Assembly: GCA_017962125.1 (NCBI GenBank)
Contig: JAGCVZ010000011.1
Span: 182,255 to 246,254, forward strand
Direction of reading: 5' to 3'
Length of the DNA stretch: 64,000 bases
Origin: Alphaproteobacteria bacterium
GTDB taxonomy: Bacteria > Pseudomonadota > Alphaproteobacteria > Rs-D84
A program made the position numbers and the translations under genes. The notes beneath the pieces were generated by a model. The model worked only from the letters and a program-made list of their open reading frames with translations, was not told where the DNA came from and searched no databases. Every line of letters begins with the position of its first letter. The first letter of the stretch is position 1. Below are positions 3,339 through 56,090 of the stretch, piece after piece.

Positions 3339-3423
3339 GCGGATATGGCGGAATTGGTAGACGCTCAGCACTAAGGATGCTGTGGAGAAATCCGTGGGGG
3401 TTCAAGTCCCCCTATCCGCACCA
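3339..3423 (+). tRNA. tRNA-Leu (type II, long variable arm); anticodon loop reads CUAAGGA, i.e. apparent anticodon AAG
   Basis: Cloverleaf folds by hand: acceptor GCGGATA/TATCCGC, D-arm GCGGAATTGGTAGACGC, anticodon stem CAGCA/TGCTG, T-arm GGGGG-TTCAAGT-CCCCC, encoded CCA. Length 85 nt. Confidence 0.8.
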
Positions 3424-3492
3424 AAATTGTATTTATTTGCACATTTTCCACTTGCCCAAAAAATCATTATTTTGCTAACCTTATCCCAAGGG

Positions 3493-13259: not shown

Positions 13260-13709
13260 TTACCTTCGTTTACCGTATTGGTCTGGGAAAAAAATTCTGC
13301 CGATATACTTTCTAATAAATGGCGATGGACATTTACCGGACGCAATACATACCGGGCAATCATGCCAACTTGTCGCGACACAATCAGTGTCTTTCGAAAC
13401 ACACGACCGCATTATAATAACCATTTCATCCTTTTCCGCCTTGTTCACACTTGAATCTGGTTTCCATTCAACCGCGGGATGCAAACGATCAGGTTTTACT
13501 TCAAACGCTGTATTATCATCATAATATACAACAAACCCACAATGAAATCTGTTGCCGTCCACAGGTTTACAATTCCGCATAAGTTCAATAAATTGTTTTT
13601 GAAAATTTTCGGTAACCGCCCCAACATTTATTTGCGTAGGGCGACCACTGTAATCCGGTGTATAGCGATTATAAGTAAAGTTTTGGATGATTACAAATTT
13701 TTCTGCCAT
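13260..13709 (-). CDS. hypothetical protein (149 aa, Cys-containing)
   Basis: ATG at 13707-13709 with an AAGGAT RBS. No family recognised. Confidence 0.45.
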   Translation of the reverse strand: MAEKFVIIQNFTYNRYTPDYSGRPTQINVGAVTENFQKQFIELMRNCKPVDGNRFHCGFVVYYDDNTAFEVKPDRLHPAVEWKPDSSVNKAEKDEMVIIMRSCVSKDTDCVATSWHDCPVCIASGKCPSPFIRKYIGRIFFPDQYGKRR

Positions 13710-19295: not shown

Positions 19296-21590
19296 ATGAA
19301 AGGGAAAATACTTTCTTTTATACTATGCGCTTTCTGCGCCTTTTCGGCGTTGGCCGCTGTTCGTACGCAAAATTCACCATCCCGCACACCGATTTCAGAA
19401 ACAACAAATCGCACCGATGCCAATGTCGCTACACGCGTGGCAACAAACACGCGAACCATATCAAACCGACGGATAACCAATACCAGACTTGGCACAACCC
19501 GTATCGCACGTATTACACAAACTGCGACATCACCACGTGGCGCGATAACAATGGCGGCAATCGGACGCGCCACGACCAGGAAAAATACAGCACGCGCCAC
19601 AACGGCACGTGCAACCGCCACTCCAACAGTTCAAACAAATACATTCGATGAAAATTATCATAAATGTTACGAGGCATATTTTTCCTGTATGGATCAATTT
19701 TGCGCAACTGTTGATGACCATTATCGTCGTTGTATATGTTCATCAAAACTGGACGGCGTTCAAACACGCGAACGCGCGTTAACTCAGGCATCAAATCAAT
19801 TACAGGATTTCAAAGACCTTAATATCGAAGTAATCTTGAAAACCCCAGAAGAAGTTAAATCTATGCTGTCTGCATCCGAAGGGGAGAAAAAACTTAGCAC
19901 CACACACGATAATTCTGAATCTTCAAAAAAATTAACCGCAATCGGTGATGTTTTAAAGAAAGCCAAAACAAATTCACTATCAACCGCTGGAACATTGGAC
20001 ATAGCCGGCGATATTGGTCAGATATGGAACACAACTGACATCGTATCCGGGGCAAACATTGCAAACCTTACGGGTGAATCGTTATACAACGCCGTACATT
20101 CTCAGTGTGCGGAACTTGTATTACCCACTTGTCCATCAATGACGACATTAAATATGGTTTCTTCGGCATATGGAATGTATATTGAAAACGATTGTTCAAT
20201 ACTGCTTACTGCCCTAGAAAAACAATCTGTAACAGCAAACGCGGCGGTTCGTGAAACGAATCGCGAAATGAACGCGGCACGACTTGAAAATTATAATGCG
20301 CACAATTCAACCGTGATAAACGATTGTATTGCGGGCGTGCGGGCGGATATAACGGCAGATACTGCATGTGGTGAAAATTATGTCCACTGTTTGGATTTAA
20401 CTGGATTATACCTTAATCGTATAACTGGGGAACCAATATATACCAAGAATTTTTATAAACTGAACGACCAGATCTCACTATCTGGGAACATTTTAACAAA
20501 CAGCACTAATGCGAAACTTGTTACCGAATTAAATTCCAAGAGAAAATTCGCCACACACACACTTGAAACATGTCGCGACATCGCCGATACCGTTTGGGAC
20601 GAATATCTGCGCCAGGCAATAACCGAGATATACCAAGGTCAACAATCAAAAATTCAACAGGTTAAGAACGAATGTATGGATGTCGTAAATAAATGCTATG
20701 ACACAAAGACATCGCAATTACGTGATTACAGTAATATCGAAGAACAAATGTTACTTGGTTCTCGTCTTGAACTGTCCGAAGAAATGTGTTCGGAAAAATT
20801 GGAAACATGCAGTAATCTTTACGGTGGTGGTCCAACGGGACTTGCATTGTTAGTAACAGAAATGCATAAAATTGTTGACCAAAAAATTTCGCAAAAATGT
20901 CTTGCCACATTGCAAAATTATGCCCAAAAATTGTGTCGTGTTTCCGGGAACGATATATCACATCAATATCCATATGGATGTCGTGTTTATAAGCCAGGCG
21001 ATATACTTAACGCAACAAATCCAGAATGCACATACAGTGCCGAAATTTATTATGATGGTGACGAACATACCGCACCATCTTCTAGTGGAACCAGTGTCGA
21101 TAGTCTACCCACCGGTTACGATTGTTGGGGTATTCGCGAATACAGCTTATGCAGAACCAACTATTATCTCCATCAAGACAATGACGGTAGGAATAAATGT
21201 TACGTTTGTCCAACAGATTGGTACTGTCCTGGCGGAACAGAGCAACCGCAAAAACACAATGACAACTGCAGTGATTACATAGGAAGCCTGTATCAAAAAA
21301 TGGTTCAGTACGCATTACAATATTGTGTTCGACCAACCGAAGCACAGGCAACAAACACTATTCCTATCGAAGTGCTGGCCGACGTTAATACTGTAATGGA
21401 TTCTATACGTTCCGACATGGCGACAATATTATCCAAAGAATGCACCGACCTGAATGGAACATGGACAGATTATACATCAGCCGCAGAAGACAAGGCATAT
21501 ATAGATTTTTATAACAAAACAAATGCAGACTATAAGTGGGGAGTGTGCATCAATTCGACAGAAGGGTCAGAAAGCGGTGAAGGTGAATAA
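19296..21590 (+). CDS. large secreted cysteine-rich protein, paralog P2
   Basis: 764 aa. Signal peptide MKGKILSFILCAFCAFSALAAV, then a T/R/N-rich basic low-complexity region, then CYEAYFSCMDQFCATVDDHYRRCICSS. The block ETCRDIADTVWDEY matches P1. Confidence 0.7.
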   Translation: MKGKILSFILCAFCAFSALAAVRTQNSPSRTPISETTNRTDANVATRVATNTRTISNRRITNTRLGTTRIARITQTATSPRGAITMAAIGRATTRKNTARATTARATATPTVQTNTFDENYHKCYEAYFSCMDQFCATVDDHYRRCICSSKLDGVQTRERALTQASNQLQDFKDLNIEVILKTPEEVKSMLSASEGEKKLSTTHDNSESSKKLTAIGDVLKKAKTNSLSTAGTLDIAGDIGQIWNTTDIVSGANIANLTGESLYNAVHSQCAELVLPTCPSMTTLNMVSSAYGMYIENDCSILLTALEKQSVTANAAVRETNREMNAARLENYNAHNSTVINDCIAGVRADITADTACGENYVHCLDLTGLYLNRITGEPIYTKNFYKLNDQISLSGNILTNSTNAKLVTELNSKRKFATHTLETCRDIADTVWDEYLRQAITEIYQGQQSKIQQVKNECMDVVNKCYDTKTSQLRDYSNIEEQMLLGSRLELSEEMCSEKLETCSNLYGGGPTGLALLVTEMHKIVDQKISQKCLATLQNYAQKLCRVSGNDISHQYPYGCRVYKPGDILNATNPECTYSAEIYYDGDEHTAPSSSGTSVDSLPTGYDCWGIREYSLCRTNYYLHQDNDGRNKCYVCPTDWYCPGGTEQPQKHNDNCSDYIGSLYQKMVQYALQYCVRPTEAQATNTIPIEVLADVNTVMDSIRSDMATILSKECTDLNGTWTDYTSAAEDKAYIDFYNKTNADYKWGVCINSTEGSESGEGE

Positions 21591-21661: not shown

Positions 21662-22369
21662 ATGAAAAAACAAATCGCGACTTTATTATTTGGCGTTACC
21701 ACATGCGGAACCGCATTTGGTGCGGGGATTGATTGGTGGAATCGTAACACAATTTGTCAAATAAATGACACTCGGTGTTATGCAGAATCCACGGTTGGTA
21801 TAGATTTTAGCTTTGAAACGGGTTGGGATATATCCGGTAACTGTCGCGGCAAAAAGTTTATCTGTGCCGAAGCACTTAGTACCGATGCATCTGATTCTGT
21901 CGGCATGGAACGCGTTGATATTTTACGCAAAAACGGGATTAGCTCTGACTTTGATACAGATGTTTATGTTTCATCTGGTAATTGTTATGGTGCACGCAAA
22001 ACTTCGCAAAATGGAACGATGGCTTTGGTAGATGGCGAATATGTTCGTGTATGGTGTAATGGGATTCTATCTAACCCGACTGGTACTGTTGCGAATGGTG
22101 AAATAACAACAAATGCAAATCCAACATGTCGTGAGTTAGCGGACATGAATTATGTCGCGACATTGAATGGTAATTGTTACGGCAAAAAATACAATCCGGC
22201 AAATTATGCCATTGATTGTGATGGTGAAAATCCAATAATAATTATCTTGAACGGCGCAGAATACGATTCAAACGGTCGCAATCCCATGACAATTTCAACC
22301 GTCAATACGCTCTTTGATAAAATGCAAGCAAACGCAGCCGCACAACGCGCAATTCATTTTCCACAATAG
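21662..22369 (+). CDS. secreted cysteine-rich protein (235 aa)
   Basis: Signal peptide with 14 Cys. Strong RBS AAAGGGAGAAAG. Lies 70 nt downstream of P2. Confidence 0.55.
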   Translation: MKKQIATLLFGVTTCGTAFGAGIDWWNRNTICQINDTRCYAESTVGIDFSFETGWDISGNCRGKKFICAEALSTDASDSVGMERVDILRKNGISSDFDTDVYVSSGNCYGARKTSQNGTMALVDGEYVRVWCNGILSNPTGTVANGEITTNANPTCRELADMNYVATLNGNCYGKKYNPANYAIDCDGENPIIIILNGAEYDSNGRNPMTISTVNTLFDKMQANAAAQRAIHFPQ

Positions 22370-29687: not shown

Positions 29688-30023
29688 ATGCCACGTATGA
29701 AAGACAAAATCAAAAATTTATTTGGATTTATTGGTCGTGCATGGCGCGGTGGCGTTCGTGGCAAGTTTGGCGTATTTTTTGCGGCATTCGCTCTGCTTGC
29801 GTTCATAAGGATTTTTTTCGGCGAAGTAAATGTTGGACGGTTTGTCACAAATATATGGCATCTATCTGCAGAACGTGCCGAATTAGTTGCGGAAACAAAA
29901 AAACTTGAAACAATTCAACACCACATACAGTTATTAAAACAACACAGCCCCGATTACATCGAAGAATTGGGGCTGCGATATCTGAATGTTGGTGACCCAG
30001 AATTCAAAATTCTTAAAATTTAG
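29688..30023 (+). CDS. ftsB: septum formation initiator FtsB-like
   Basis: 111 aa. TM helix plus coiled coil. C-terminal SPDYIEELGLRYLNVGDPEF resembles the FtsB DYIEE..LG..KPGE region. Divergent from dus, with TATAAT at 29683-29688. Confidence 0.55.
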   Translation: MPRMKDKIKNLFGFIGRAWRGGVRGKFGVFFAAFALLAFIRIFFGEVNVGRFVTNIWHLSAERAELVAETKKLETIQHHIQLLKQHSPDYIEELGLRYLNVGDPEFKILKI

Positions 30024-30493
30024 TTCATCATAACAATATACGAATTCATATAGAACGCGAACATCAGCCATAACAGATATGGTATAACCAATGCCATTGC
30101 CCGTCTATCTATGTTATAAAACACTCGCGCCATCCATGTCGACACAATAAACAGCACCAACAGCACCAACAATGCAAATGCGGTCATATGCAAACCAAAG
30201 AACAAATACGACCATCCCGCATTCAATAACATTTGTGCCACGAATAAAACATAAGCCATTACTTTTTCAGATTTACCACGTACACTTTTAATAACCAAGA
30301 ATAAAGCGAACCCAAGCAGCGCATATAAAATTGTCCATGCCGCACCAAACACCGCACCTGGTGGTGTTAAACCTGATTTAACCAAACTGTTATACCACAA
30401 ATTCGAACCACCATGTGGCGTAAAGAAAACACCAAAAATCCCAGGCAAGAAAGAAATTACTATTGCAACACAAAATTGAATTAATCGTTTCAT
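30020..30493 (-). CDS. tspO: TspO/MBR tryptophan-rich sensory protein
   Basis: 157 aa with five TM helices, and the WY..L.KSGLTPP..VFG.AWTILYALLG pattern. Confidence 0.75.
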   Translation of the reverse strand: MKRLIQFCVAIVISFLPGIFGVFFTPHGGSNLWYNSLVKSGLTPPGAVFGAAWTILYALLGFALFLVIKSVRGKSEKVMAYVLFVAQMLLNAGWSYLFFGLHMTAFALLVLLVLFIVSTWMARVFYNIDRRAMALVIPYLLWLMFAFYMNSYIVMMN

Positions 30494-30615
30494 ATTTTTT
30501 CCTTTTGTTTTATTGGTTTAATTTTATCACATTCAAACCAATCAAAACATAGGAAGAAAAACACACCAACGACCAAACAGTTACCAACAACAAAACATAT
30601 TTTACAAAAAATAAA

Positions 30616-31056
30616 TTACTCGACCAGATTGCCAAATATAGCGGTGCGAAGGCCAAGGTTCGACCCAAGGTTATTACTGCATTTTTGTGCACACCCACTT
30701 GAACAAGAGTTACCCGGATAACCATTCCCTATCCAGATAGATTCCACAGGATGCAACATTTTACAAAAGCAATAAGTCTTTTGCGTCTGATTCATAAGAC
30801 AATCTTGGCTCGTTGGTACAACCCCAGGCGCACTTGAGGTGTTTTGACCACAGGCATAACTACATATAGAAATCCCACTTACAATCCCGTAACTAAACTG
30901 TGTGGACCATGTGTTGTTGGTTGCATCACTTGACAAGCCTGTCCCGCTAATTTGCGGGTCCAAGACGACCATAATACTGCCGTCTTTTACGCACATGTTT
31001 TCCCCATATGCAATAATTGGTAAAATCATAAATAATAATATAATTATTCTTTTCAT
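30616..31056 (-). CDS. small secreted cysteine-rich protein (trio member 1)
   Basis: ORF trimmed to the ATG at 31056 (MKRIIILLFMILPIIAYG). 10 Cys. C-terminal ..LRTAIFGNLVE. Confidence 0.55.
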   Translation of the reverse strand: MKRIIILLFMILPIIAYGENMCVKDGSIMVVLDPQISGTGLSSDATNNTWSTQFSYGIVSGISICSYACGQNTSSAPGVVPTSQDCLMNQTQKTYCFCKMLHPVESIWIGNGYPGNSCSSGCAQKCSNNLGSNLGLRTAIFGNLVE

Positions 31057-31076
31057 TTTATTTCCCTTTTTCCTTT

Positions 31077-31526
31077 TTACCACACGCCCCCAAACATCGC
31101 CGTCCGGAATGCCGTCGATGTTTGAACTTTTTCCCCACACTTATCCGCACAATTCAACGCGCATGTCGCGGTATCCGCGTAATCTTTGTGTGCCAACACA
31201 GAATAAGACACCAATGGTTTCCGCATCACACACCAACAATATGGTCCAGATTCTTCACCCCCAGTTATACCTACCGTTGTATCCACTGTATCGATTGCAT
31301 TACTCGCACCAACTTCGGCACATCCCGCATAGCCACTAACATACGGTGTATTCGAACTTGATGTGTTATAACCCATAGTTACCGTCCATGCGCCGTTATT
31401 CCCCGTCGTATGCGATACACCATTGTCGTATATTGATAAACTTGCTACATACGAACCCGTATGAACGCACATGCTCGTCGCATTCGCCATCATCGGCAAC
31501 ATTATCAACGCAAGTATTGTCTTCAC
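31077..31526 (-). CDS. small secreted cysteine-rich protein (trio member 2, paralog of member 1)
   Basis: GTG start overlapping the upstream stop (TAGTG), with a G-run RBS. Shares ..MCV..G.., CxC..P and ..FRTAMFGG with member 1. Confidence 0.5.
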   Translation of the reverse strand: MKTILALIMLPMMANATSMCVHTGSYVASLSIYDNGVSHTTGNNGAWTVTMGYNTSSSNTPYVSGYAGCAEVGASNAIDTVDTTVGITGGEESGPYCWCVMRKPLVSYSVLAHKDYADTATCALNCADKCGEKVQTSTAFRTAMFGGVW

Positions 31527-32341
31527 TATTCCCCCCCATAGTATGTTTGATTATTATATTTCAGATTTATCGTCCCATGCCGCGACCCGTTACCAAGGTT
31601 CACATAACATACATCCCCATTCGCAAACCTTATGTTAATAGACGGAATCGTCGCTCGTTCGCGATATAACGGTAACGCAACACCATTTGATGCGTGCAAT
31701 ACAGTCCCCCCAGATGTACATGCAAGTTGCGGTGTACAAAAGTCCGACATGTTACTAAACCCAAGATACACACGACAATAATCCGCATCTCCATATAATG
31801 AATAGTTCGTCGGGCATTCATCATTCGCATTTGCACGGACAAACGCCATACTGGGAACCGGCGCAAAAAAATTATCTGGACAATTTTCAACCGGATTAGA
31901 CGAACAACCTGATACCGTCGGATATTCCCCAGAACCACATGTTGTCGCACTGCTAACTATTAAATATGCAACATTGCGAGTCGTTTGTTGCGCCTGGTAT
32001 CCCGTATAGCATGTTCCTCCTAATGGTTGAACCACCATAGATGAATTTGTGGTCGCATCGTGAAACCCGGCCGCACAATTACCAACCGTATCGTTTACAC
32101 ATGTACCGTTTGACATATGTTGACCCGTTGGGCATACAATACCACTGGCCTGTGAGACGAATCGAAAATTCCCAATGTTACCTGTATATATTTCATAGCC
32201 GGAATAGCATCTCCCTCCACGTGGGGCAACGGTGCTGGTCGAACTTATCCCCGATGACACAGTCCACCCGTTACCACAGGTTTCATCCGCCATTACCGGT
32301 AACCCAAACACAAATACAAAAATGTAACAAACTTTCTTCAA
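31526..32341 (-). CDS. secreted cysteine-rich protein (271 aa, trio member 3)
   Basis: TTG start with a GAGGGG RBS. Signal peptide. 20 Cys in a T/S/G-rich sequence. Confidence 0.5.
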   Translation of the reverse strand: MKKVCYIFVFVFGLPVMADETCGNGWTVSSGISSTSTVAPRGGRCYSGYEIYTGNIGNFRFVSQASGIVCPTGQHMSNGTCVNDTVGNCAAGFHDATTNSSMVVQPLGGTCYTGYQAQQTTRNVAYLIVSSATTCGSGEYPTVSGCSSNPVENCPDNFFAPVPSMAFVRANANDECPTNYSLYGDADYCRVYLGFSNMSDFCTPQLACTSGGTVLHASNGVALPLYRERATIPSINIRFANGDVCYVNLGNGSRHGTINLKYNNQTYYGGE

Positions 32342-32388
32342 TTTGCCCCTCGCAATATAAAAAATTTAAACCGCCAAACGGAAATGAC

Positions 32389-32461
32389 GGTCGGGGTGTT
32401 CGAAAATCAAATCTGCTATGACTCCCGTAACATTTAGATATACGCCACAGGCACCCCGACC
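32389..32461. repeat. conserved 74-nt stem-loop element, copy B (GGTCGGGGTG...GATATAC...CACCCCGACC)
   Basis: Same terminal 10-bp complementary arms and spacing as 43896..43969. Loop contains GATATAC in both. Confidence 0.5.
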
Positions 32462-32672
32462 AATGATCGAGGCATAAAACATAATGACGGCACAAAACAT
32501 CGGAAAATAATAGATTACGACAATTCTGTGCCGGCAGATTTGGGCCTTCGACAGCCCCAAAACGAATTCCCATTCGCTTCGAAAAGTATGCTACTAAAAG
32601 GCACCACCAAAAGCAAGCAAAAACGGCGCCCTTGTTTTTTGAAAAAAATAAGTTATAATAATCCTACGTCAC

Positions 32673-32749
32673 GTGCCCATGGCTCAATTGGATAGAGCAA
32701 TTGCCTTCTAAGCAATAGGTTGCAGGTTCGAGTCCTGCTGGGCACGCCA
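32673..32749 (+). tRNA. tRNA-Arg (anticodon TCT)
   Basis: Acceptor GTGCCCA/TGGGCAC, anticodon stem ATTGC/GCAAT with loop CTTCTAA, T-arm GCAGG-TTCGAGT-CCTGC, encoded CCA. Confidence 0.85.
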
Positions 32750-32755
32750 AAAATT
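32733..32755 (+). repeat. 23-bp direct repeat copy 1 (3' end of tRNA-Arg, TCCTGCTGGGCACGCCAAAAATT)
   Basis: Repeated exactly at 32967..32989. Attachment-site-like duplication. Confidence 0.75.
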
Positions 32756-32966
32756 CAACTCGACCTTTTTGGTCGGTTTTAATTTTTGTTGCGTAACCAA
32801 AGGACGAGAACCCAGGTTCGAAAACAAGTAGATTTTGCAAATGTAATGCAGCAAAATCGTCACGGTTTGCGCGCAGTGTCGGCAAAGCCGACCAAGCGAC
32901 CCGATAGTTGATGAGAACGAGTGTAAACGAAGTTCGAATCTTACGTGTGGTGAGCATAGCGAACAA

Positions 32967-32989
32967 TCCTGCTGGGCACGCCAAAAATT
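32967..32989 (+). repeat. 23-bp direct repeat copy 2 (att-like)
   Basis: Identical to 32733..32755. The ~210 bp between copies contains tRNA T-loop-like fragments (GGTTCGAAAAC, GTTCGAATC). Confidence 0.75.
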
Positions 32990-33010
32990 TAAATCTGTTG
33001 CGATTGCAAC

Positions 33011-33034
33011 CGGTTTAACCACTAACACTAATCA
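33011..33034 (-). repeat. solo stop-motif terminus (TGA-TTAGTGTTAGTGGTTA) of the IR-element family at the mscS stop
   Basis: On the minus strand the mscS stop TGA is the first triplet of TGATTAGTGTTAGTGGTTA. Confidence 0.5.
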
Positions 33035-33922
33035 CTTTTTAACATGCACATCCACTTGCGGAAAAGGAAAGTGAATCTTCTTTTTCGGCAGTTTATTGTA
33101 TATCGCTTCTAACATATCGCCTCGACTAGGGATCATATCGTTCGCTGATGTCCAATAGCGCACTGTAAGTACAACCGCACTATCCCCTAAATCAGAAACA
33201 AAAACATTTGGAGCTGGATCTTTTAAAACACGTTTATCCGCCTTGATTATCGCCAGTATCTCTTTACGCGCTACATCAACACTGTCGCCATAAGAAATTG
33301 CAACCGATAGTTCCGCGCGCCGCGTTTCATTTCCCGAAAGGTTTGTTATCTGACTATTGGACAGCGCACCGTTCGGCAACAAAACAACCTGGTTATCAAA
33401 AGTATGAATTTCAGTTGTAAAAATCATAATCTTTTTAACAATCCCAGTTTTGCCATCAGATGTTGAAATAATGTCACCAACCTTGAACGGTTTTAGAAAC
33501 ATAATGATAATTCCGCCGGCAAAATTCTGCATTGTTCCGGACAATGCCATACCAACCGCCAACGAAGCCGCACCAATAACAGCAACAATAGATGTCATTT
33601 GAACGCCAACGGTCGCAAGTGATATAATAACTACGAATATCCGCAAAAGTATATTCACAAACGAACCTAAAAAAGTAACAAGCGATGCATCTGATCCGCG
33701 CCGTTCTAACATACGTTTGAAAGATTTCGCAAGACGCTTTGCTATCCACATTCCACCCATCAAAACAACAAGTGCCGCAAGCAACTTTAAACTAAAATCC
33801 ACCGCCATGCTCGTCAGTGATGAAATCAAAGTTTTTAATTCCTCTGCGCTGGCTTGAACCTTTTCTGGCACAGTCTGTATCGCATCAACCGCATTACCAA
33901 CAACACTATCAACAACTTCCAT
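33032..33922 (-). CDS. mscS: small-conductance mechanosensitive channel MscS
   Basis: 296 aa. TM helices, then the conserved beta-domain region (..GDIISTSDGKTGIVKKIMIFTTEIHTFDNQVVLLPNGAL..). Confidence 0.8.
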   Translation of the reverse strand: MEVVDSVVGNAVDAIQTVPEKVQASAEELKTLISSLTSMAVDFSLKLLAALVVLMGGMWIAKRLAKSFKRMLERRGSDASLVTFLGSFVNILLRIFVVIISLATVGVQMTSIVAVIGAASLAVGMALSGTMQNFAGGIIIMFLKPFKVGDIISTSDGKTGIVKKIMIFTTEIHTFDNQVVLLPNGALSNSQITNLSGNETRRAELSVAISYGDSVDVARKEILAIIKADKRVLKDPAPNVFVSDLGDSAVVLTVRYWTSANDMIPSRGDMLEAIYNKLPKKKIHFPFPQVDVHVKK

Positions 33923-33937
33923 TATTTTCCCTTTTGA

Positions 33938-36514
33938 TTACATTTGCATATCTTCACACTTTTCAACCGGGTCAGACTCAGTACAATTAACTTCGTCCTT
34001 TTGTCCTATACCCAAGAATCCATTTTTATGCACTGTATTGCAACTCTTGGTCACCGTCGAAGAACAAAGCCGACATATACGCGTTTCACGATTAAATGTT
34101 GACCACATTTGGCGCGTGCCACCTGGGATATTATATGCACTTTTATTACCGGCACCAGACAAGGCATATACACCTTCACTTGCGCCAAGCGATACAGCCG
34201 CCGACAAACCACGCATAACCTTATCGCCCACACCTTTGCCATAACCCGCTCTCTCGTTACTCACACTGCCCATACCACTTGTTGCGGACGTACCATGACC
34301 ACCCTGGGCAAGCAATCTATTATCCAACCCCACCCCTACTTCATAACTAATCGCGTATGGTGGCGCAAGATTTACCTGTTGTTCTTGTACTGCCTTTCCA
34401 CCAAAAATTCCACGTGAAAAAGGCAACATTTGGCAATTATATTGTGCAATGTCAACCTCTGCATCTCGGCTTGCCTTGGCAACATATTCATCGAATTTAG
34501 CTCTCTGATTCTCTGATGCTTTATTCAACGCCGCACTTGTGATTTTGCCCAAATACTGATTTAACAAATTCGGGAAACGCGCCACAGTGGATGTACCAGT
34601 ATCACCTGTTATCTGATCCAAACTACGCCCTGTTACACAGAACTGAATTTTTGGATCCAATTCAATCATATCTATCACACGATTTATTTTCTCTGCAACA
34701 CTGTTCAACTCCATTTCTATAGATGCCAAAATACCTTCTGAATCCTTAACGCCATCATTTACCTCTCTAGCACGCGCCATATAATCTTTGACACCAACTT
34801 TACCAAGGCCAAGCTTCTTACCCCCATCTTTCTTGGTGCTACCATCGCCGACGTTCAGCATATCAAACGAAATCATCCCAGTAATACGATATACATTACC
34901 ATCTTTCACACTGCGCAAACTGCCTGTGCCAATTGTTTCATCAGATGCCCAACGATTGCAATCGGTTGTAGAACCACAAATTTCCATCATTTTATCTTCG
35001 ACAACTTTCTGACAATTTTCTAATGCTTTGTTATCCATATTCAGATAAAGCCCCATTATCATGGAATCAATATCTTCCATCTTGAAGTTTTTATTATTCG
35101 CCTTGCAAACCACAAGTTTATCAAGTGGACAAAGATTATGAACAAATTCCCAATCCATACCTATACAATTCATAAAATCAGGTCCACAACGATCTTCGGA
35201 ATAAATACAATCTTTAACCTCCTGGGTGCACGCATCAACACGCATCGCCGCTAACTTGTCTTTTACATATCCCCAAATCAGTGGTTCCATACGTTCACAC
35301 GGATCAAGTTGAACCTTGCAAAACGATCTCGCCATATCAGGTCGTGATAAACACGAATCCATTGTCGCCTTGCCCTTGCCCACAATATCATCTTTGCAAG
35401 CCGTTTGAATACATTTCGTAATATCCGTTAAACAAGATTGCCGCACATTGGATTCTGCACGCAATTCTGCAAGTTTCAAACTTGGGGCAACTTCACGTAA
35501 AAACGCAGTCCAAACATTATTACGTACCGCCATACATTGGTCCAAAACTCGTTCACAAATTGTTCGTTTTGATTCAAGCCGTTCCAACACTGACGGTGTT
35601 ATATCGTAAGCAACGGTTGTACTTACCTTGGTCCCGGCGGTACTAGTTGCGGTCTTGTTTTGCATATTTTCATTTGCAATTATGGAAACACAATTTACCC
35701 AATCATCCCCGCAAGCATCAGCGCCAAGCATACAGTTTTTCAATTCAACCATGCATTCACCCTGATTGAATTTATTAGATGAATCAAAACTTTCTTTTAA
35801 CGCGGTTCTAACATCGGATTCTGCCGAATTCATTGCGGATTTCGCCGCAGCACGTTGTTCGGCAATACTATTTGCAAACCCACGACAATCCGATTCTATC
35901 TGACGTTGATAAATCTGTTTTAACAATTTTATATCTTTAACACACGATGAACCCAACTGATCTCGACATGTATCATCCGCAACTTTGAACAGTTCCGCCC
36001 CAGTCTTGTGCATAATATCATCATCGTCTTCTTCGTCATCTTCTTCGCTTAAATTTGTTTCAAACATCTTCATCAAACTTTCACGTTTCGATTTTCTCTT
36101 ATCCGCCGCGGTCATCTCTCCGACTTTGATAACATTTCCTTTTTCGTCATATTTGCGTTCACCCGTAAAGACAATATCTGCATTTGCACCAAGTTTTATT
36201 TTTTCTACCTCTACCGTTTTTACACGATCGGCCTCGGCTAACATTTCGTTTATTTCTTCAAGTTCGGCTTCATACTTTGTATTACTGTTACTACACAGAC
36301 AACTGCCCCCATTTATATTTTCCGACATACAAAATTGATCCATACAACCATAGTATTCATCATAGCATTCCTGAGAATAAATGCCCTTGGCCGCAACCCG
36401 CGCACGAACATTTGTCCCATTTTGAATTGCTGATTGTTTCTTTGCTGTTGCCGCAACCGCAACAACCGGTATAATCAATAACGCTGATAAAAAGGCAATT
36501 TTTTTCATTTTCAT
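33938..36514 (-). CDS. large secreted cysteine-rich protein, paralog P3
   Basis: 858 aa. Signal peptide, then CYDEYYGCMDQFCMSENINGGSCLCS, an acidic DDEEDDDD run, ICERVLDQCMAVRNNVW, and a C-terminal ..CTESDPVEKCEDMQM. Confidence 0.7.
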   Translation of the reverse strand: MKMKKIAFLSALLIIPVVAVAATAKKQSAIQNGTNVRARVAAKGIYSQECYDEYYGCMDQFCMSENINGGSCLCSNSNTKYEAELEEINEMLAEADRVKTVEVEKIKLGANADIVFTGERKYDEKGNVIKVGEMTAADKRKSKRESLMKMFETNLSEEDDEEDDDDIMHKTGAELFKVADDTCRDQLGSSCVKDIKLLKQIYQRQIESDCRGFANSIAEQRAAAKSAMNSAESDVRTALKESFDSSNKFNQGECMVELKNCMLGADACGDDWVNCVSIIANENMQNKTATSTAGTKVSTTVAYDITPSVLERLESKRTICERVLDQCMAVRNNVWTAFLREVAPSLKLAELRAESNVRQSCLTDITKCIQTACKDDIVGKGKATMDSCLSRPDMARSFCKVQLDPCERMEPLIWGYVKDKLAAMRVDACTQEVKDCIYSEDRCGPDFMNCIGMDWEFVHNLCPLDKLVVCKANNKNFKMEDIDSMIMGLYLNMDNKALENCQKVVEDKMMEICGSTTDCNRWASDETIGTGSLRSVKDGNVYRITGMISFDMLNVGDGSTKKDGGKKLGLGKVGVKDYMARAREVNDGVKDSEGILASIEMELNSVAEKINRVIDMIELDPKIQFCVTGRSLDQITGDTGTSTVARFPNLLNQYLGKITSAALNKASENQRAKFDEYVAKASRDAEVDIAQYNCQMLPFSRGIFGGKAVQEQQVNLAPPYAISYEVGVGLDNRLLAQGGHGTSATSGMGSVSNERAGYGKGVGDKVMRGLSAAVSLGASEGVYALSGAGNKSAYNIPGGTRQMWSTFNRETRICRLCSSTVTKSCNTVHKNGFLGIGQKDEVNCTESDPVEKCEDMQM

Positions 36515-36515
36515 C

Positions 36516-38666
36516 CTACATATTTACATCTTCACAAGATTCTATTTCCTGGCAGAAAGTTTCTTGACCGCCCGATGCGTAACCCATTGCACCAAAAGCA
36601 GCCGCACCAACAAGTGCCCCAATCGCAGTTCCCCAACCAGCACTTACCATGGTTCCCGCAGATGCTCCGGTTGATAAACCGCCAGCCGCAGCCTTTAACA
36701 TCGAGGTAGATTTCTTTTCGCCCCCAACTTCACAAACGCGTTGCATACGGCATACATGGCAATTACGTAATGAAGGTTCAAAAGAAACACTCTTTATATA
36801 AGAGTAAGACGTTTTTTCATCTTTTTCTTCTGCTTTTTTCTTTTCTGGCTTATAAAGTGTCAAACAATTTTCACGTGCTTCTTCCACATCTTGTTGCCGC
36901 GACAATTCCGCCACACGCGATTCCAAATCGGTAAGATAGCGATTTTCTGCGCCATTTTCTGCTATCATTTTTGCCGTCACAAAAATACTATCTTTCAAAC
37001 TTTTCCGACCTGCGGGTTGCTGCGCGCTTTTACATGCATCAACAGTAGCCTCCTTTTCAAACTGCTTAAAGAACTCCTCAACTGCAGTTTTACTTTCATC
37101 TTTCACTCTCTGACGCAAATCAGTCTTTCCAGATTCAGTACTAGGTAATTTAGTTAAAGTTTCTACAATATCACTCTTTGGTAAACAATTCATATCTGTT
37201 CCACAAATACGTCCCAGCATATCATCGTAATAGTTAATACAGCCTTGCATCATTTGATAATTCATCTGCAACAGCACAGAACTTACAATAACATCATAAA
37301 ATTTTTCACTTTTGCACGAAGGAAACATATCTTGGGGGCAAAGATCGACAATTTCTTGCGCGTTTTTCCCAAGGCACTGCGGTCCTGTGAAATTTTCACC
37401 ACATTTATTGCGCAAACATTTATCAACATCCGACTGACAAAAATCTGTCCGCAATGCCACCAACTTTTCGTTCCAACTCTGTTTAAGCCCCGGAATTTTA
37501 GCATCACATTCGTTTATAATTGGGCACACCCCCGCCGCAACATTTACATTCGTTAAACACCCTGTATCAGTCGACACAGCGCACCCATCTTCTAAACAAG
37601 CACGAATTTTGGCATTGCACGTCAGACGCATATTTCTATCACTATAAACCGCCGCATCGGCAAGAATCATTTTTGCTTCGTCCTTCCAATCATCCAAAAC
37701 GAAAGTTCTAACCGCCATACATTGATCTAAAATATTTTCACACGCATTTGCACGCCGTTCCAAAAGTTTTGCATCTAAACAATTTTCAAACTGAACACCA
37801 CAACCACCCTTGTCGGCAATACATGCGCGATACGCAAGCAAACATTCACCACGATTATACTTATTTGTAGTTCCTAACATATCCAATGTCGCCGACCGCA
37901 CAGCCGCATCCGCCGTCCGCTTGTTGGATTCCGCTGCGCGCTTTTGTTCTGCTAGATACCCAGTAAAAGTTTTACAATCTTTGAGTATTTCGCGCTGATA
38001 AAGTTTTTCTTCCATATCGGCACGTTTATTGTCACATGTTTTTAAAATAAAATCACAAGATTCAGCCGCTATATCATAAAGATTATCACCAATATCAGCA
38101 TCAGCATCCAAACTGGAATTCGTATCGCCATTTATCCATGCAACAAGGTCTATCCCCGTCTTGCGCGAAGATTTTTTTGCTTGGTCACTTTCACCAAATT
38201 TTATAAATTTCGCCTTGGCTCCAAGTTTTTCACGTTCGACCCCTTCTGTATATTGCTTTTCCGCCGCGAGTTCAATATCTTGAATTTCTTTAATTAATTT
38301 TTTTGATTGTTTTATATTGTTCGAACAAGAACAACGCCCCCCTTCGGATTCGTCCAACAAACAAAAATCATCCATACATTCACGATAGGCTTCGCGACAT
38401 TCTTCTGGACTAAGGTTTTCAATATCGTATTCTTCAACTTCCTCAGATGTAACACTAACCTCTTCTACTTCCGCGGGCTCCTCTACTTTTGCCACTGGCG
38501 CGCTTGAACTTTTACTATTCACTAAATTTATATTTTTTGTCTTAACCGCAGGACCAACAGACAACGACGGTCCACGAATGCCCGCCCGATTACCACCATC
38601 GCGCGTTGCCCCAAAACTAACACATGGCAAAAGCGCCAAAATAACAAAGAATATTTTGATTTTCAT
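36516..38666 (-). CDS. large secreted cysteine-rich protein, paralog P4 (tandem with P3)
   Basis: 716 aa. RBS AAGGAAAAA. CREAYRECMDDFCLLDESEGGRCSCS, ACENILDQCMAVRTFVL, a Gly-rich segment near the C-terminus, and ..CQEIESCEDVNM. Stop is 1 nt from the P3 ATG. Confidence 0.7.
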   Translation of the reverse strand: MKIKIFFVILALLPCVSFGATRDGGNRAGIRGPSLSVGPAVKTKNINLVNSKSSSAPVAKVEEPAEVEEVSVTSEEVEEYDIENLSPEECREAYRECMDDFCLLDESEGGRCSCSNNIKQSKKLIKEIQDIELAAEKQYTEGVEREKLGAKAKFIKFGESDQAKKSSRKTGIDLVAWINGDTNSSLDADADIGDNLYDIAAESCDFILKTCDNKRADMEEKLYQREILKDCKTFTGYLAEQKRAAESNKRTADAAVRSATLDMLGTTNKYNRGECLLAYRACIADKGGCGVQFENCLDAKLLERRANACENILDQCMAVRTFVLDDWKDEAKMILADAAVYSDRNMRLTCNAKIRACLEDGCAVSTDTGCLTNVNVAAGVCPIINECDAKIPGLKQSWNEKLVALRTDFCQSDVDKCLRNKCGENFTGPQCLGKNAQEIVDLCPQDMFPSCKSEKFYDVIVSSVLLQMNYQMMQGCINYYDDMLGRICGTDMNCLPKSDIVETLTKLPSTESGKTDLRQRVKDESKTAVEEFFKQFEKEATVDACKSAQQPAGRKSLKDSIFVTAKMIAENGAENRYLTDLESRVAELSRQQDVEEARENCLTLYKPEKKKAEEKDEKTSYSYIKSVSFEPSLRNCHVCRMQRVCEVGGEKKSTSMLKAAAGGLSTGASAGTMVSAGWGTAIGALVGAAAFGAMGYASGGQETFCQEIESCEDVNM

Positions 38667-43715: not shown

Positions 43716-43740
43716 CCCCGCAATCGCGGGGATTTTTTTA
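43716..43740 (+). terminator. intrinsic terminator of the ppiD-like gene (CCCCGCAATCGCGGGG + T7)
   Basis: Hairpin 8 nt after the stop, followed by TTTTTTT. Confidence 0.6.
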
Positions 43741-43782
43741 CTTGCCTTGAATTAGTTAAGTTTGTTAGCATAAATACGAAGC

Positions 43783-44022
43783 CATGTGGGAACTTGGTTT
43801 CGGGCTGTAGCAGGCCTTACCTATTCGGTGCGAAGCATCGTAATCCATTGTGATTTCTCATGCTTTTGCACCGTCAAAGATAAAACCCCGATTTTGGTCG
43901 GGGTGCCCTTGGGATATACATAAAACCCATGGGGTCATCTAATAGGTATGATTTGCTAACACCCCGACCGCTTGGTTTCCAAAGCGGTGTTTTTATTTTA
44001 CAGAAAAAAAAGGGGGAGGAAC
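43783..44022 (+). promoter_or_regulatory. structured 5' leader of the 44023 gene with an intrinsic terminator (putative attenuator / riboswitch-like)
   Basis: Candidate promoter TTGAAT-N17-ATAAAT at ~43748-43776. GGTCGGGGTG (43896-43905) can pair with either an upstream CCCCGA hairpin or with CACCCCGACC (43960-43969). The latter overlaps the 5' arm of the terminator ACCGCTTGG..CCAAAGCGGT + T-run (43967-43996), which sits 26 nt before a strong-RBS ATG. Confidence 0.35.
43896..43969. repeat. conserved 74-nt stem-loop element, copy A
   Basis: GGTCGGGGTG ... GATATAC ... CACCCCGACC, matching 32389..32461. Confidence 0.5.
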
Positions 44023-45510
44023 ATGAGAAAGTTCATGATATTCGGGTTGTTCGCGGCATTTATCGGTTTCGCATTCGCCGATGATATTGCCGACAGGCAA
44101 ACAGTAACATCACTAACGTATGTAAATGATGAACTTTCTGAAAAACAAGATATATTCGGTGCGCAATCAGGAACAAAAGTTGCAACTTTTACCAATACCG
44201 CCGGGGAAATCACACCACGCGAAGTAAAATCAGATTTAGGCAATAACACAAACGACACCGCATTACCAACGGTTAGTGCAGTGAATACAGGTTTAGATGC
44301 CACCCAAGATACACTTGGTGCAAACAAACATGCGGATTATGTTGCGACATATACAAATGCGCCGGGTGAATTAGGTGAAAAAGGAATCTATCAAGACAGT
44401 GGCACATACGCCGAACAACAAAATGCACTTGTTGATGCGGGAACATTTAATGCGGCATTACAAAACGGATTGGATAATGAATTTGTTTGTGCCGGCAATG
44501 ACCCCGCAACCGGTAATTGTTGGTTATGGACGACACATAATGGACCGGTGAACTTGTTTAATGGGACCATGTATAAAGGCGGTTTAAATCTCAACGTCTC
44601 GTTTGTAGCTTCCAATTTTAAAAAAATTACTTCGCCATATACCCCAAACTCTGACTTTTATGGTCCAACCTTTTATGCAAGGGTTAAACCAAATACGAAA
44701 TACATGGTAACCATGACCACGAGTGCAAGATATAAATACGTTGCCTATTATTCAAACGAAAGTGATATTACCGATAGAAGTCTGGCATTAGGATATGCCA
44801 ACGTATCTAATAACATGTTCACCACACCATCAGGTGCAAATTACGCTGTTATTAGTTTTACTAATGCCAACACCAATGAAATAACATGGTCAAATGTCGA
44901 GCTCTATGAAATACCTGATTCCATTCTGGTTCCTTATGCATATACCCCGTTGGAATATATAGAAGCAACAAACGAAACCACAACTATTAATTTAGGGCTT
45001 TCCGGAGATATGAATTTTCTGGTTGTAGCACAATCAAGTAGAATAAAAGGCGCTTCACAAACCTTGCTTTCATCTACAAATGGCGGAAACACTAGTACAT
45101 GGTTTGGCGAGGCTACAACTACGCATACTTGGGGCGTGAGCGGTGCTAGCGGCGCTCATGCTATCTATTCAACTGAAAAGATATCTGCTAATATCACATT
45201 TGATTCTTTTGGGGCAAGGGGGACGGTAAATGGGCAAACCATTGTGAGAAATAAAGATACAACACAACAAAATTGGTGTTTGTTTAGTACTTGTATTGGC
45301 TATTATCCGTTTTTAGGCAAAGTTTGGACATTGCGAGCATATCAAAATGGTGTGCTTGTAGGAAATTTTATCCCCGCAAAACGTAATAGCGATAATGAAA
45401 TTGGTATGTACGATACAGTATCGGGCACGTTTAAAACTAACACTGGCACCGGAACACTTATCGCCGGGCCAGAGATAAGTAATAATGTTTACCTGCCCCA
45501 GAATCAGTGA
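44023..45510 (+). CDS. secreted Cys-poor T/N/S/G-rich beta-rich protein (adhesin- or fibre-like)
   Basis: ATG at 44023 with RBS AGGGGGAGGA and signal peptide MRKFMIFGLFAAFIGFAFA. About 495 aa with only 3 Cys. C-terminal ..GMYDTVSGTFKTNTGTGTLIAG... Confidence 0.6.
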   Translation: MRKFMIFGLFAAFIGFAFADDIADRQTVTSLTYVNDELSEKQDIFGAQSGTKVATFTNTAGEITPREVKSDLGNNTNDTALPTVSAVNTGLDATQDTLGANKHADYVATYTNAPGELGEKGIYQDSGTYAEQQNALVDAGTFNAALQNGLDNEFVCAGNDPATGNCWLWTTHNGPVNLFNGTMYKGGLNLNVSFVASNFKKITSPYTPNSDFYGPTFYARVKPNTKYMVTMTTSARYKYVAYYSNESDITDRSLALGYANVSNNMFTTPSGANYAVISFTNANTNEITWSNVELYEIPDSILVPYAYTPLEYIEATNETTTINLGLSGDMNFLVVAQSSRIKGASQTLLSSTNGGNTSTWFGEATTTHTWGVSGASGAHAIYSTEKISANITFDSFGARGTVNGQTIVRNKDTTQQNWCLFSTCIGYYPFLGKVWTLRAYQNGVLVGNFIPAKRNSDNEIGMYDTVSGTFKTNTGTGTLIAGPEISNNVYLPQNQ

Positions 45511-54977: not shown

Positions 54978-56090
54978 ATGAAAAAATTCTTATTATTATT
55001 GTCCATATTAGGGCTCGCCGCATGCGACAGACCGACTTCCAATGCCGAATTAACCTGCACAGTTGATAAACATTGGCAGCGATCAAATGTATTGTACTTA
55101 AACAACAATTACTATGATCCAGCGGCCAGGGAAGATACCGAAATAAAGGTCAAAATTGTGACTTATGATGATTATGCTAAAGTAACGGTTGATGGCGTAA
55201 TCACCACGTTTGAAAAGGTCATAGAACGCCGCGATAATGGCGAATTTGGATATGTTAGTCTAACATACAAGGGTAATTTTCCCGATTCAGAAAGAACGGC
55301 TTTGTTGGACATTTATGGCGATATAACCAACAAACAAATTCTACAATACCAGCTTAGTTTCATAGGGCAAAAGACAAAAAACGACTCTGGACGTGAATTC
55401 AGTATGAGTCATTCTTGCCGTCCTGTAAAAGAAGAATATAAAGGCAAATCATGGGGCGCTGCGGTTCCTTTCCACCACAATTATAAAATGCCGAACAAAA
55501 TTGAACGGTGCATTACTGATATTTGCAAAACGGTGTACTGTGGCGACGGAACATGCACAAGCCTTACCATTTTAAATGATGAAAACGGAAAAGAATTTCC
55601 ATTATCACCCCAAGACGCTCTTTCATTATCGAGAAATTGGGATTATTCTAATCTAAAACGGTACAGTAACGACGGAAAATTAGAAGATTATGAAAAAGAT
55701 GCGTGCGAAGTTCTGGATAAAATAAACAAATTTATTGCCGACCATGATTTATTTTTCGATGCATATAAAACGATTCAAGATGCAATGGATAACTGCGGGG
55801 AAAATTGTAACCGCATACTTACAAAAGGTGAAAAAGGAGATTTTCTAATTCAAATACCAGAAACCAAAGACTTGCGCAAAATTGCAACCAAGCAAAAAAA
55901 TGTTAAATTTTTATCGATATTTAATCCAAACTCACATGCCAAAGCCGATTACTGTCTTGTTAATGTAATCCCATACGACACTATGAAAAAGTTAGGAACG
56001 CCCGATAGCGATTGTCATTACCGCATTTACTGTGGTGCCCCAGAACATATGAACTATAACGAACCCTATGCAGTGGAAGTGTGTTATTAA
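54978..56090 (+). CDS. lipoprotein, Cys-rich hypothetical (370 aa)
   Basis: Lipobox LGLAAC after the signal peptide. 20 Cys. No family recognised. Confidence 0.55.
   Translation: MKKFLLLLSILGLAACDRPTSNAELTCTVDKHWQRSNVLYLNNNYYDPAAREDTEIKVKIVTYDDYAKVTVDGVITTFEKVIERRDNGEFGYVSLTYKGNFPDSERTALLDIYGDITNKQILQYQLSFIGQKTKNDSGREFSMSHSCRPVKEEYKGKSWGAAVPFHHNYKMPNKIERCITDICKTVYCGDGTCTSLTILNDENGKEFPLSPQDALSLSRNWDYSNLKRYSNDGKLEDYEKDACEVLDKINKFIADHDLFFDAYKTIQDAMDNCGENCNRILTKGEKGDFLIQIPETKDLRKIATKQKNVKFLSIFNPNSHAKADYCLVNVIPYDTMKKLGTPDSDCHYRIYCGAPEHMNYNEPYAVEVCY

Follow-up and report, generated by a model that had tools for sequence, protein, structure and literature searches.

Three small genes on the minus strand of a contig from an uncultured gut alphaproteobacterium, here called M3, M2 and M1 in the order in which they would be transcribed, probably form a conserved operon of exported envelope or surface proteins that stands under the control of a conditional leader RNA. 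They lie between tspO (30020-30493) and a tRNA-Arg(TCT) gene in the 64,000-nucleotide stretch of contig JAGCVZ010000011.1 that we analysed and refer to as the window; positions are counted from its first nucleotide. At NCBI, the trio is recorded as the hypothetical proteins J6Y07_03675, J6Y07_03680 and J6Y07_03685 on a 254-kb contig of a metagenome-assembled genome (MAG) named 'Alphaproteobacteria bacterium', and nothing on these proteins was found in the literature. An initial annotation of this DNA had noticed three small co-oriented reading frames here, which our open reading frame (ORF) calls bear out, and had seen in them an accessory-like secreted cassette, a view of which only a part survives the analysis presented below.

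M1 and M2 belong to a large unannotated domain family

M1 and M2 are paralogs. Their full-length alignment yields 29% identity over ~150 amino acids (aa) with a BLASTP E-value of 2e-13, which confirms the kinship that had initially been read from shared motifs. The motifs are real as well, and several of them are invariant or nearly so throughout the family: M-C-V after the signal peptide, C97-x-C99-x-M...P104, C122-x3-C126-x3-C130 and R141...F145.

We refer to the domain of which M1 and M2 each represent a single copy as the M domain. Among 1.84 billion cluster representatives, a 15-sequence profile matched 1128 at E ≤ 1e-3, a number that falls to 332 at E ≤ 1e-10 and to 21 at E ≤ 1e-30. The matches are mostly ~140-165 aa long, carry a signal peptide and keep the same invariant positions, i.e., a cysteine 2-4 residues into the mature protein, W47, Y53, G65, C69, Y-C97-x-C99-x-M, P104, S107, C122-x3-C126-x3-C130 and R141. 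The domain comprises ~130 aa (~125-130 aa in mature M1 and M2) and seven conserved cysteines, including those of the C-x-C and C-x3-C-x3-C motifs. Searching M1, M2 and M3 against Pfam, NCBIfam and PHROGs gave no usable match, and the profiles of the M-domain and M3 families found 0 matches among PDB sequences at E ≤ 10. The META domain (PF03724) was considered and dismissed, as M1 and M2 do not match it at E ≤ 0.1, only 7 of 67 family members do so weakly (best E 0.014) and no PDB chain appears at E ≤ 10. Judging from these searches, the domain of M1 and M2 is a large unannotated family that lies outside Pfam, NCBIfam and the PDB.

Close homologs were retrieved by a word-indexed search of 5.8 billion proteins, which returned 8 for M2, 7 for M1 and 13 for M3, nearly all of them metagenomic. 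A scan of a genome collection with a narrow alignment returned two MAGs only, both labelled 'uncultured proteobacterium', one of which is RUG14636. Among viral contigs, the M domain has one match, L019 (IMG/VR UViG_3300028797_006173), and M3 has none. L019 is filed as viral; a biotin-ligase-like gene lies nearby, and the contig looks bacterial rather than phage.

The most variable part of the M domain is the stretch between C69 and C97, at which the column entropy peaks (3.0-3.2 bits vs 1.8-2.4 bits in most other blocks) and whose length ranges from 21 to 46 residues. An AlphaFold2 model of M2 has a mean predicted local distance difference test score (pLDDT) of 74.9, and 5 of its 15 ten-residue blocks average at least 90. 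It consists of five strands followed by two C-terminal helices, with C97-x-C99 placed in strand 4, C122-x3-C126-x3-C130 in helix 1 and the C69-C97 loop modelled at low confidence. A Foldseek search of this model against PDB and BFVD gave no match at E ≤ 0.001.

The initial annotation had pointed to knottin- or defensin-like folds, and the small proteins might accordingly be taken for secreted peptides with an antimicrobial or toxin-like action, akin to defensins, knottins or bacteriocins, that are carried in an accessory cassette. They are indeed small, of the exported type and rich in cysteines, and a C-x-C in a strand combined with a C-x3-C in a helix recalls the cysteine-stabilised alpha-beta (CS-alpha-beta) motif of disulfide-rich, exported defensins. 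A weak NCBIfam match to a cysteine-rich family of ribosomally synthesised and post-translationally modified peptides (RiPPs) points in the same direction; it covers 12 residues at an E-value of 0.033 and 14 bits, against a cut-off of 35. However, CS-alpha-beta defensins and knottins are peptides of 30-50 aa around a core of 3-4 disulfides, whereas the mature M domain is three to four times that size, has the two motifs in reversed order, with C-x-C before C-x3-C, and adopts in the model a fold that matches neither solved nor viral structures. No immunity, ABC-exporter or modification genes are present in the six genomic contexts of the trio, the order of the three genes is conserved in divergent genomes, and M domains occur in tandem arrays of giant structural proteins, as described in the following section. 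We consider the toxin reading to be highly improbable, and neither size nor predicted structure supports a knottin- or defensin-like fold.

The C-terminal domain of M3 is fused to M domains in other proteins

Sequence alignment detects no similarity between M3 and M1 or M2. An hhalign comparison of M3 and the M domain reached a probability of 41% over 44 columns, and we treated the two as unrelated. M3 is formed by duplicated modules of ~66 aa, each of which runs from C-x2-G-aromatic through GG-x-C-Y-x-G-Y to C-x2-G-x-aromatic-x4-G-x-C, and by a C-terminal domain of ~70 aa. All 14 cysteines of the mature protein are at least 90% conserved among 13 homologs. The spacing of its motifs (C-x2-G-aromatic and C-P-x-G-x-aromatic-x4-G-x-C) is reminiscent of cysteine-repeat families of the PF07699 type, a likeness that concerns motif spacing only: M3 and 12 homologs show no Pfam match to Ephrin_rec_like / GCC2_GCC3 (PF07699) at E ≤ 1.

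A local iterative search found the C-terminal domain of M3 always at the extreme C-terminus of the respective protein. In four cases (P0175, P0181, P0088 and P0155), it closes a protein that opens with an M domain. It is mainly because the two domains are fused elsewhere that we regard M3 and M1/M2 as functionally linked.

The M domain itself recurs in much larger proteins. P0029 (4750 aa), whose contig encodes an alphaproteobacterial trcR, contains five M domains in tandem together with Flg_new repeats and a C-terminal Endonuclease_1 domain, while seven tandem M domains are found in P0030 (6218 aa) and four in P0031 (784 aa). In P0146, the M domain follows an Ephrin_rec_like repeat, which scores 25.4 bits in Pfam at a cut-off of 23.1. 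The protein of 1669 aa encoded at 465-5474 of L019 combines one M domain with cysteine repeats and a sub-threshold match to BspA-type leucine-rich repeats (LRRs).

Start sites and N-termini of the trio

The listed ORF of M1 opens at a GTG at position 31140. An ATG at 31056, preceded by the Shine-Dalgarno-like run AGGGA and situated 20 nucleotides (nt) past the M2 stop, gives a protein of 146 aa instead of the 144 aa first reported, and this product is identical to J6Y07_03675. For M3, the NCBI call (P0016, 255 aa) opens at an internal methionine, by which the signal peptide is lost. The 270-271-aa homologs of M3 retain a hydrophobic N-terminal extension that ends in A-x-A-D-E-T-C-G and have no methionine at the later position. 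Because this extension is kept and a GAGGGG run lies 4 nt 5' of the TTG, we prefer the TTG, already named in the initial annotation, which on these grounds appears to be the better call.

With these starts, M1 contains 9 and M2 7 cysteines; M3 has 15, of which one lies inside the signal peptide and 14 remain in the mature protein, and not 20 as previously counted. Neither is M3 distinguished by a richness in threonine, serine and glycine, as had been proposed, since these residues make up 29.5% of M3, 28.8% of M1 and 31.5% of M2.

Signal peptides were judged by inspection and hydropathy. All three proteins start with an n-region of lysines or arginines and a hydrophobic core (maximum Kyte-Doolittle mean over 10 aa of 2.6-3.3), followed by small residues ahead of the mature N-terminus (ANA/TS, AYG/EN and VMA/DE, with the slash at the presumed cleavage site). 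This is what is expected of Sec (type I) signal peptides, i.e., a basic n-region, an h-region of at least 10 residues and small residues at -3 and -1. The same features are kept in the homologs, and across the M family A-x-A-like sites are located 2-4 residues upstream of the first cysteine. A lipoprotein reading was rejected, as a lipobox ([LVI][ASTVI][GAS]-C) is lacking and the residue before the first cysteine is M, L, I or another large residue (T-S-M-C, E-N-M-C). A signal peptide, noted initially for M1 and M2, is thus apparent in all three proteins, which are predicted to be exported via Sec and are probably stabilised by disulfide bonds.

The gene order is kept in six divergent genomes

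The order of M3, then one or two M2-type genes and then one or two M1-type genes was found in 6 of 6 divergent genomes, each time in a different neighbourhood. In the window, the cassette has the tRNA-Arg gene on its left and tspO on its right. These places are taken by rplM-rpsI with a 164-aa gene and by tig in L001-L003, by carD and the lptB region in L011 (RUG14636), by ligA and an HU gene in L016, and by an integrase with tRNA-Gly and the tgt region in L017; the cassette of L012 lies on a short contig, the end of which is on its left. By their scores with hidden Markov models of the subfamilies, the genes in second position are of the M2 type (C-terminus ...FRTAMF..W) and those in last position of the M1 type in all six genomes, and M2 is 38-66% identical to its counterparts in four of the five other genomes. 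Since order and subfamily assignment are constant in the six genomes, M1 and M2 represent two old subfamilies and not a local or recent tandem duplicate. Judged by its gene order, the trio is a module that the lineage has conserved and not the cargo of single strains.

The stop codon of M3 (TAG, 31528-31526) shares its G with the GTG start of M2 (31526-31524), so that the 1-nt overlap TAGTG described initially can be read directly from the sequence. Stop and start overlap by 1-4 nt in 4 of the 6 genomes (TAGTG, TAATG, TAATG and ATGA), and the conserved C-terminus of M3 (...HG[VG]E) puts a G-rich Shine-Dalgarno-like run just before the start of M2. Translational coupling of M3 and M2, which the initial annotation had proposed to be tight, is a plausible and reasonable inference from this arrangement.

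The trio had further been placed next to a tRNA-Arg integration scar, and it could be the cargo of a mobile element that integrated at tRNA-Arg, i.e., a strain-specific island. A tRNA gene does adjoin the cassette, a repeat of its 3' end (27 of 29 nt identical, far beyond chance) lies close by, the L017 cassette adjoins a tRNA-Gly with a phage-type integrase beyond it, and the locus of the cassette differs in every genome examined. However, the ~234 bp that the repeat brackets lie 3' of the tRNA, in the direction of mscS, while the cassette sits on the 5' side of the tRNA and outside the bracket; the geometry in L017 is the same, with the integrase 3' and the cassette 5' of tRNA-Gly. No integrase was found among the window ORFs examined, and BLAST searches of phage and plasmid collections gave no match to the cassette. 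Its content of guanine and cytosine does not deviate from its surroundings (0.446 vs 0.421 for the window), and in the window species the locus is identical in contigs of at least 4 samples. The divergence of the orthologs is as expected for vertical descent with genome rearrangement, and the varying position of the cassette fits such rearrangement in the lineage. In view of geometry and base composition, we reject the tRNA-island reading and regard mobile, strain-specific cargo as very unlikely. The repeat, which has no relation to the trio, was probably left behind by an integration or excision event, so that the scar is real but lies across the tRNA from the cassette. Of the accessory-like secreted cassette, what stands is a cysteine-rich cassette of the Sec-exported type with two true paralogs, and what finds no support is its accessory nature.

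Nothing coding is evident within the ~234 bp inside the repeat. In L017 (4804-6567), the orthologous cassette is followed across tRNA-Gly(GCC), on the 3' side of the latter, by genes for a phage-type integrase of 517 aa, a DNA methylase and a ResIII helicase. For two of the six cassettes, the adjoining tRNA gene thus is, or once was, an integration site.

A structured RNA element lies upstream of M3

The 330 bp between tRNA-Arg and M3 show a folding z-score of -5.2 relative to shuffled sequence (single-sequence fold) and are ~70% identical to the stretch that precedes the cassette of L017, in spite of the different flanking tRNAs. We predict that the 330 bp contain a sigma-70-type promoter and a structured leader of ~220 nt, with 27 nt between the end of its terminator stem and the TTG of M3 (Table 1). 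The promoter assignment is supported by its positions, which align with CTTGAC-N17-TAnAAT in 39 copies of the element.

Further copies were detected by nhmmer and by a covariance model, R1, with which the copy at M3 scores 191 bits. One more resides in the window, upstream of an exported-type protein. L013 has two copies by nhmmer, one of them ahead of a gene pair that includes P0031 with its four M domains, and R1 adds a copy in L014 directly upstream of P0088, one of the fusions of an M domain with the C-terminal domain of M3 (43.8 bits, E 4e-11). The element consequently precedes four independent M-family loci, i.e., those of the window, L017, L013 and L014. The strict exact pattern GTCGGGGTGCC-N38-66-AACACCCCGACCG occurs at 44 metagenome loci. 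Weak R1 matches (E 0.0015-1) were AT-rich partial alignments and were disregarded.

Covariation was assessed on a MAFFT alignment of 39 copies and its RNAalifold structure, with slid controls and 500 shuffles. Standard pairs occupy 94.8% of the paired cells, compared with 34-45% in the slid controls. Compensatory changes were found in 23 of 45 pairs (10-16 in the slid controls) and in 147 cells (18-36 in the slid controls); values as high as these were obtained in 0 of 500 shuffles. The way in which the copies were searched for makes helix 5 and the two search words invariant. These parts carry no weight, so that the support derives from helices 1-4, 6 and 9. A terminator helix with a U-run is present in 39 of 39 aligned copies. 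In a search of Rfam 15 (4227 families), the window region 29800-33100 contains only the tRNA at E ≤ 1, and nothing overlaps the L017 element at E ≤ 10. Based on its covariation, we propose the leader as a structured RNA absent from Rfam and a candidate class of cis-regulatory RNA.

Wherever an ORF can be read downstream of the element, it is co-oriented with it and mostly starts 13-80 nt after its end (range 1-145 nt). A crude rule, applied alike to both sets, sees signal-peptide-like N-termini in the products of 35 of 39 distinct downstream genes and of 27 of 61 window genes. Several belong to the M3 family. Many others, in the window (44023-45510) and in L020-L063, are fibre-like, with a mature N-terminus of the form T-[ST]-x-x-Y-V-D...K-Q-D and a C-terminal motif G-M-Y-D-x-V-S-G-x-F-F-T-N-x-G-T-G-x-F-x-A-G-P; six of these were compared with Pfam and had no significant match.

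Because the interval from the terminator to the start of M3 is too short to hold a promoter, the three genes must be expressed by read-through of the terminator, which would presumably be regulated. As read-through is required, the leader is most likely a conditional, cis-acting attenuator, either riboswitch-like or factor-dependent, and it would co-regulate the trio with many other genes for exported proteins. Alternatively, the element could be a small RNA gene in its own right, present in many copies, or a repeat element, and would in either case adjoin the operon without acting on it in cis. It would have its own promoter, its strong intrinsic terminator is kept in every aligned copy, an antiterminator pairing was not found, and three of the cassettes lack it. 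Yet the downstream ORF is co-oriented throughout and usually leaves no room for a separate promoter, the downstream genes predominantly encode proteins of the exported type, and divergent copies maintain their pairing through compensatory changes, which is unlike recently spread repeats. We hold this alternative to be unlikely and favour the cis-acting attenuator.

Processive or factor-dependent antitermination leaders are known ahead of surface-polymer operons, such as the EAR element of the Bacillus eps operon and the ops/JUMPstart elements that act with RfaH. With terminator-containing 5' leaders of this sort, i.e., riboswitches and antitermination leaders, the window element shares a covarying 5' structure, an intrinsic terminator just before the first gene and its association with many genes for surface or exported products. 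It differs from them in that it matches none of the Rfam families, that no antiterminator helix was detected and that it targets protein-coding genes for the cell surface in a single uncultured lineage.

Table 1 Positions of the trio, its predicted upstream elements and adjoining features
Feature	Position	Strand	Description
M3	31526-32341	-	271 aa; TTG start; GAGGGG Shine-Dalgarno at 32351-32346
M2	31077-31526	-	149 aa; GTG start; M2-type subfamily; C-terminus ends in W; single domain
M1	30616-31056	-	146 aa; ATG start; M1-type subfamily; single domain
Predicted structured leader RNA, ~220 nt	32360-32581	-	ends in intrinsic terminator, stem 32392-32369 + T-run
Predicted sigma-70-type promoter of leader and operon	32588-32616	-	-35 TTGCTT 32616-32611; 17-nt spacer; -10 TAGCAT 32593-32588
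Second window copy of promoter, leader and terminator	43734-44006	+	nhmmer E 3e-32; R1 213 bits; upstream of 495-aa exported-type protein (44023-45510)
Further leader copies	L013 482-732, 7140-7392; L014 9772-9998; L017 6629-6901; L020-L063		
tRNA-Arg(TCT)	32673-32749	+	ARAGORN; Rfam 73.4 bits; divergent from operon, neighbour only
29-nt direct repeat of tRNA-Arg 3' end and downstream bases	32733-32761 and 32967-32995	+	27/29 identical

Two further minus-strand ORFs in this region were set aside. The first (96 aa, 32283-32573) appears as a gene in several assemblies; it shares sequence with the structured leader and is probably spurious. The other, of 106 aa (32664-33028), overlaps the tRNA-Arg gene and is most likely spurious.

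Proposed function of the trio

In the model that we propose, promoter, structured leader with intrinsic terminator, M3, M2 and M1 would constitute one transcription unit. M1 and M2 would be stand-alone copies of an extracytoplasmic M domain, and M3 a stalk of duplicated cysteine-repeat modules that ends in its C-terminal domain. The three proteins may then be separate pieces of a single envelope or surface assembly that contacts something outside the cell, with the variable loop of M2 and M1 (C69-C97) touching the external targets. Translational coupling would produce M3 and M2 in fixed proportion, and the leader would place the trio and many other genes for exported proteins under shared control. 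We infer one such assembly because the M domain and the C-terminal domain of M3 share polypeptides and because M domains occur in tandem within giant proteins with adhesin-type repeats. A role of the trio in surface assembly or adhesion is most likely on this basis, and surface location, adhesion and complex formation are suggested by the company that the domains keep.

Modules to which relatives of the M domain are fused, namely BspA-type LRRs (PF13306), Flg_new (PF09479) and ephrin-receptor-like or GCC2_GCC3 repeats (PF07699, of the Giardia variant-specific surface protein type), are familiar from modular cysteine-rich or repeat surface proteins of gut microbes. The trio resembles these proteins in that it is predicted to be exported. 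It differs in that M1, M2, M3 and 12 further M3 homologs match none of the three Pfam families, and in that the modular surface proteins are large repeat proteins, while M1 and M2 are single domains of ~150 aa.

The main rival places M1, M2 and M3 in the periplasm, as redox-active, metal-binding or envelope-stress proteins whose cysteines would be ligands or redox centres instead of parts of surface adhesion modules. The odd number of seven conserved cysteines in the M domain and their C-x-C and C-x3-C-x3-C spacing would suit such a role. The organism moreover appears to be diderm, as indicated by lptB near the L011 cassette, and with only Sec signal peptides and no dedicated outer-membrane secretion genes beside the six cassettes, the periplasm would be the natural destination. 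A periplasmic function is harder to reconcile with M domains inside proteins of 4750-6218 aa that also carry Flg_new repeats and an extracellular-type nuclease, or with their association with ephrin-receptor-like repeats and sub-threshold BspA-type LRRs. Likewise, a hypervariable loop on a conserved scaffold is more to be expected of a protein that recognises varied targets than of one with a fixed cofactor site, and no similarity to known redox or metal-binding families was found. We judge the periplasmic alternative unlikely and retain the surface assembly as the preferred reading.

Several points weigh against this preference. Sec export in a diderm delivers proteins to the periplasm, export itself is predicted for the trio from sequence, and the surroundings of the six cassettes revealed neither a system for secretion across the outer membrane nor one for anchoring. 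In the anoxic rumen, extensive disulfide bonding outside the cell is moreover less obvious. On the structural side, the M2 model was built on a 15-sequence alignment, and AlphaFold2 gave an unusable model of M3 (pLDDT 30). As to the leader, R1 does not detect it at three of the six cassettes (L001, L011 and L016), so that it is not obligatory, and the consensus fold of 39 copies contains no competing antiterminator helix; a fold of five sequences suggested an alternative partner for ACACCCCGAC. It is possible that the leader is instead a small RNA with a leaky terminator.

The chlamydial cysteine-rich envelope proteins OmcA and OmcB provide an example of a disulfide cross-linked envelope. The many cysteine-rich proteins of the exported type in the window genome would be compatible with a disulfide-linked envelope of this kind, in which cross-linking is purely a conjecture; no sequence similarity of the trio to any annotated family was detected.

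Cysteine-rich proteins elsewhere in the window

About 11 of roughly 60 window genes encode cysteine-rich proteins (3.6-5.5% cysteine) with signal-peptide-like N-termini, which makes the trio part of a genome-wide theme. A second paralogous family of this sort is encoded at 3382-6303 (+), 19296-21590 (+), 33938-36514 (-) and 36516-38666 (-). Its members have 716-973 aa, 4.0-5.2% cysteine and pairwise BLASTP E-values of 6e-9 to 1e-57, and three of the four have clear signal-peptide-like N-termini. None of the four matches Pfam, and the two that were tested against NCBIfam and PHROGs gave nothing significant. Signal-peptide-like N-termini, 3.6-4.5% cysteine and the lack of a significant Pfam match also characterise the products of 21662-22369 (+), 54978-56090 (+), 58408-60393 (+) and 60398-61150 (+). 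A 149-aa ORF at 13260-13709 (-) has 4.7% cysteine, no signal-peptide-like N-terminus and no Pfam match. The ClpX protein of the window has no relative at 90% identity in the protein collection.

Implications

The kind of system described here, exported modular surface proteins behind a terminator-containing leader, is familiar, and its parts are new. On its own, the trio is a modest finding; it gains weight from the large number of family members, the link through domain fusions and the RNA with its support from covariation. The M domain comprises more than 1000 sequence clusters, has no annotation and no detectable known fold, and recurs in giant surface proteins. Its fusions with the C-terminal domain of M3 give a concrete interaction hypothesis for an otherwise opaque operon.

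Going further, the leader might represent a new class of riboswitch-like or factor-dependent attenuator through which a single signal governs an entire lineage-specific repertoire of exported surface proteins, including M-domain, M3 and fibre-like proteins, in gut alphaproteobacteria with reduced genomes. As binding partners, the M domain and the C-terminal domain of M3 would form a matched pair, which some genomes fuse and this one splits, and would assemble a disulfide-linked surface structure for attachment to partner cells or host material. We offer this extended scenario as a speculation that is rather unlikely.

Reduced-genome Rs-D84 alphaproteobacteria have been described in farm animals, and a dependence on partner cells has been proposed for gut Alphaproteobacteria with reduced genomes (PMC12306168). 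Should the window come from a lineage of this kind, the biology of attachment would be found in its surface repertoire and in the way that this repertoire is controlled. If the leader holds up, it would be a candidate class of cis-regulatory RNA that stands before dozens of genes for exported proteins and marks a surface-protein regulon.

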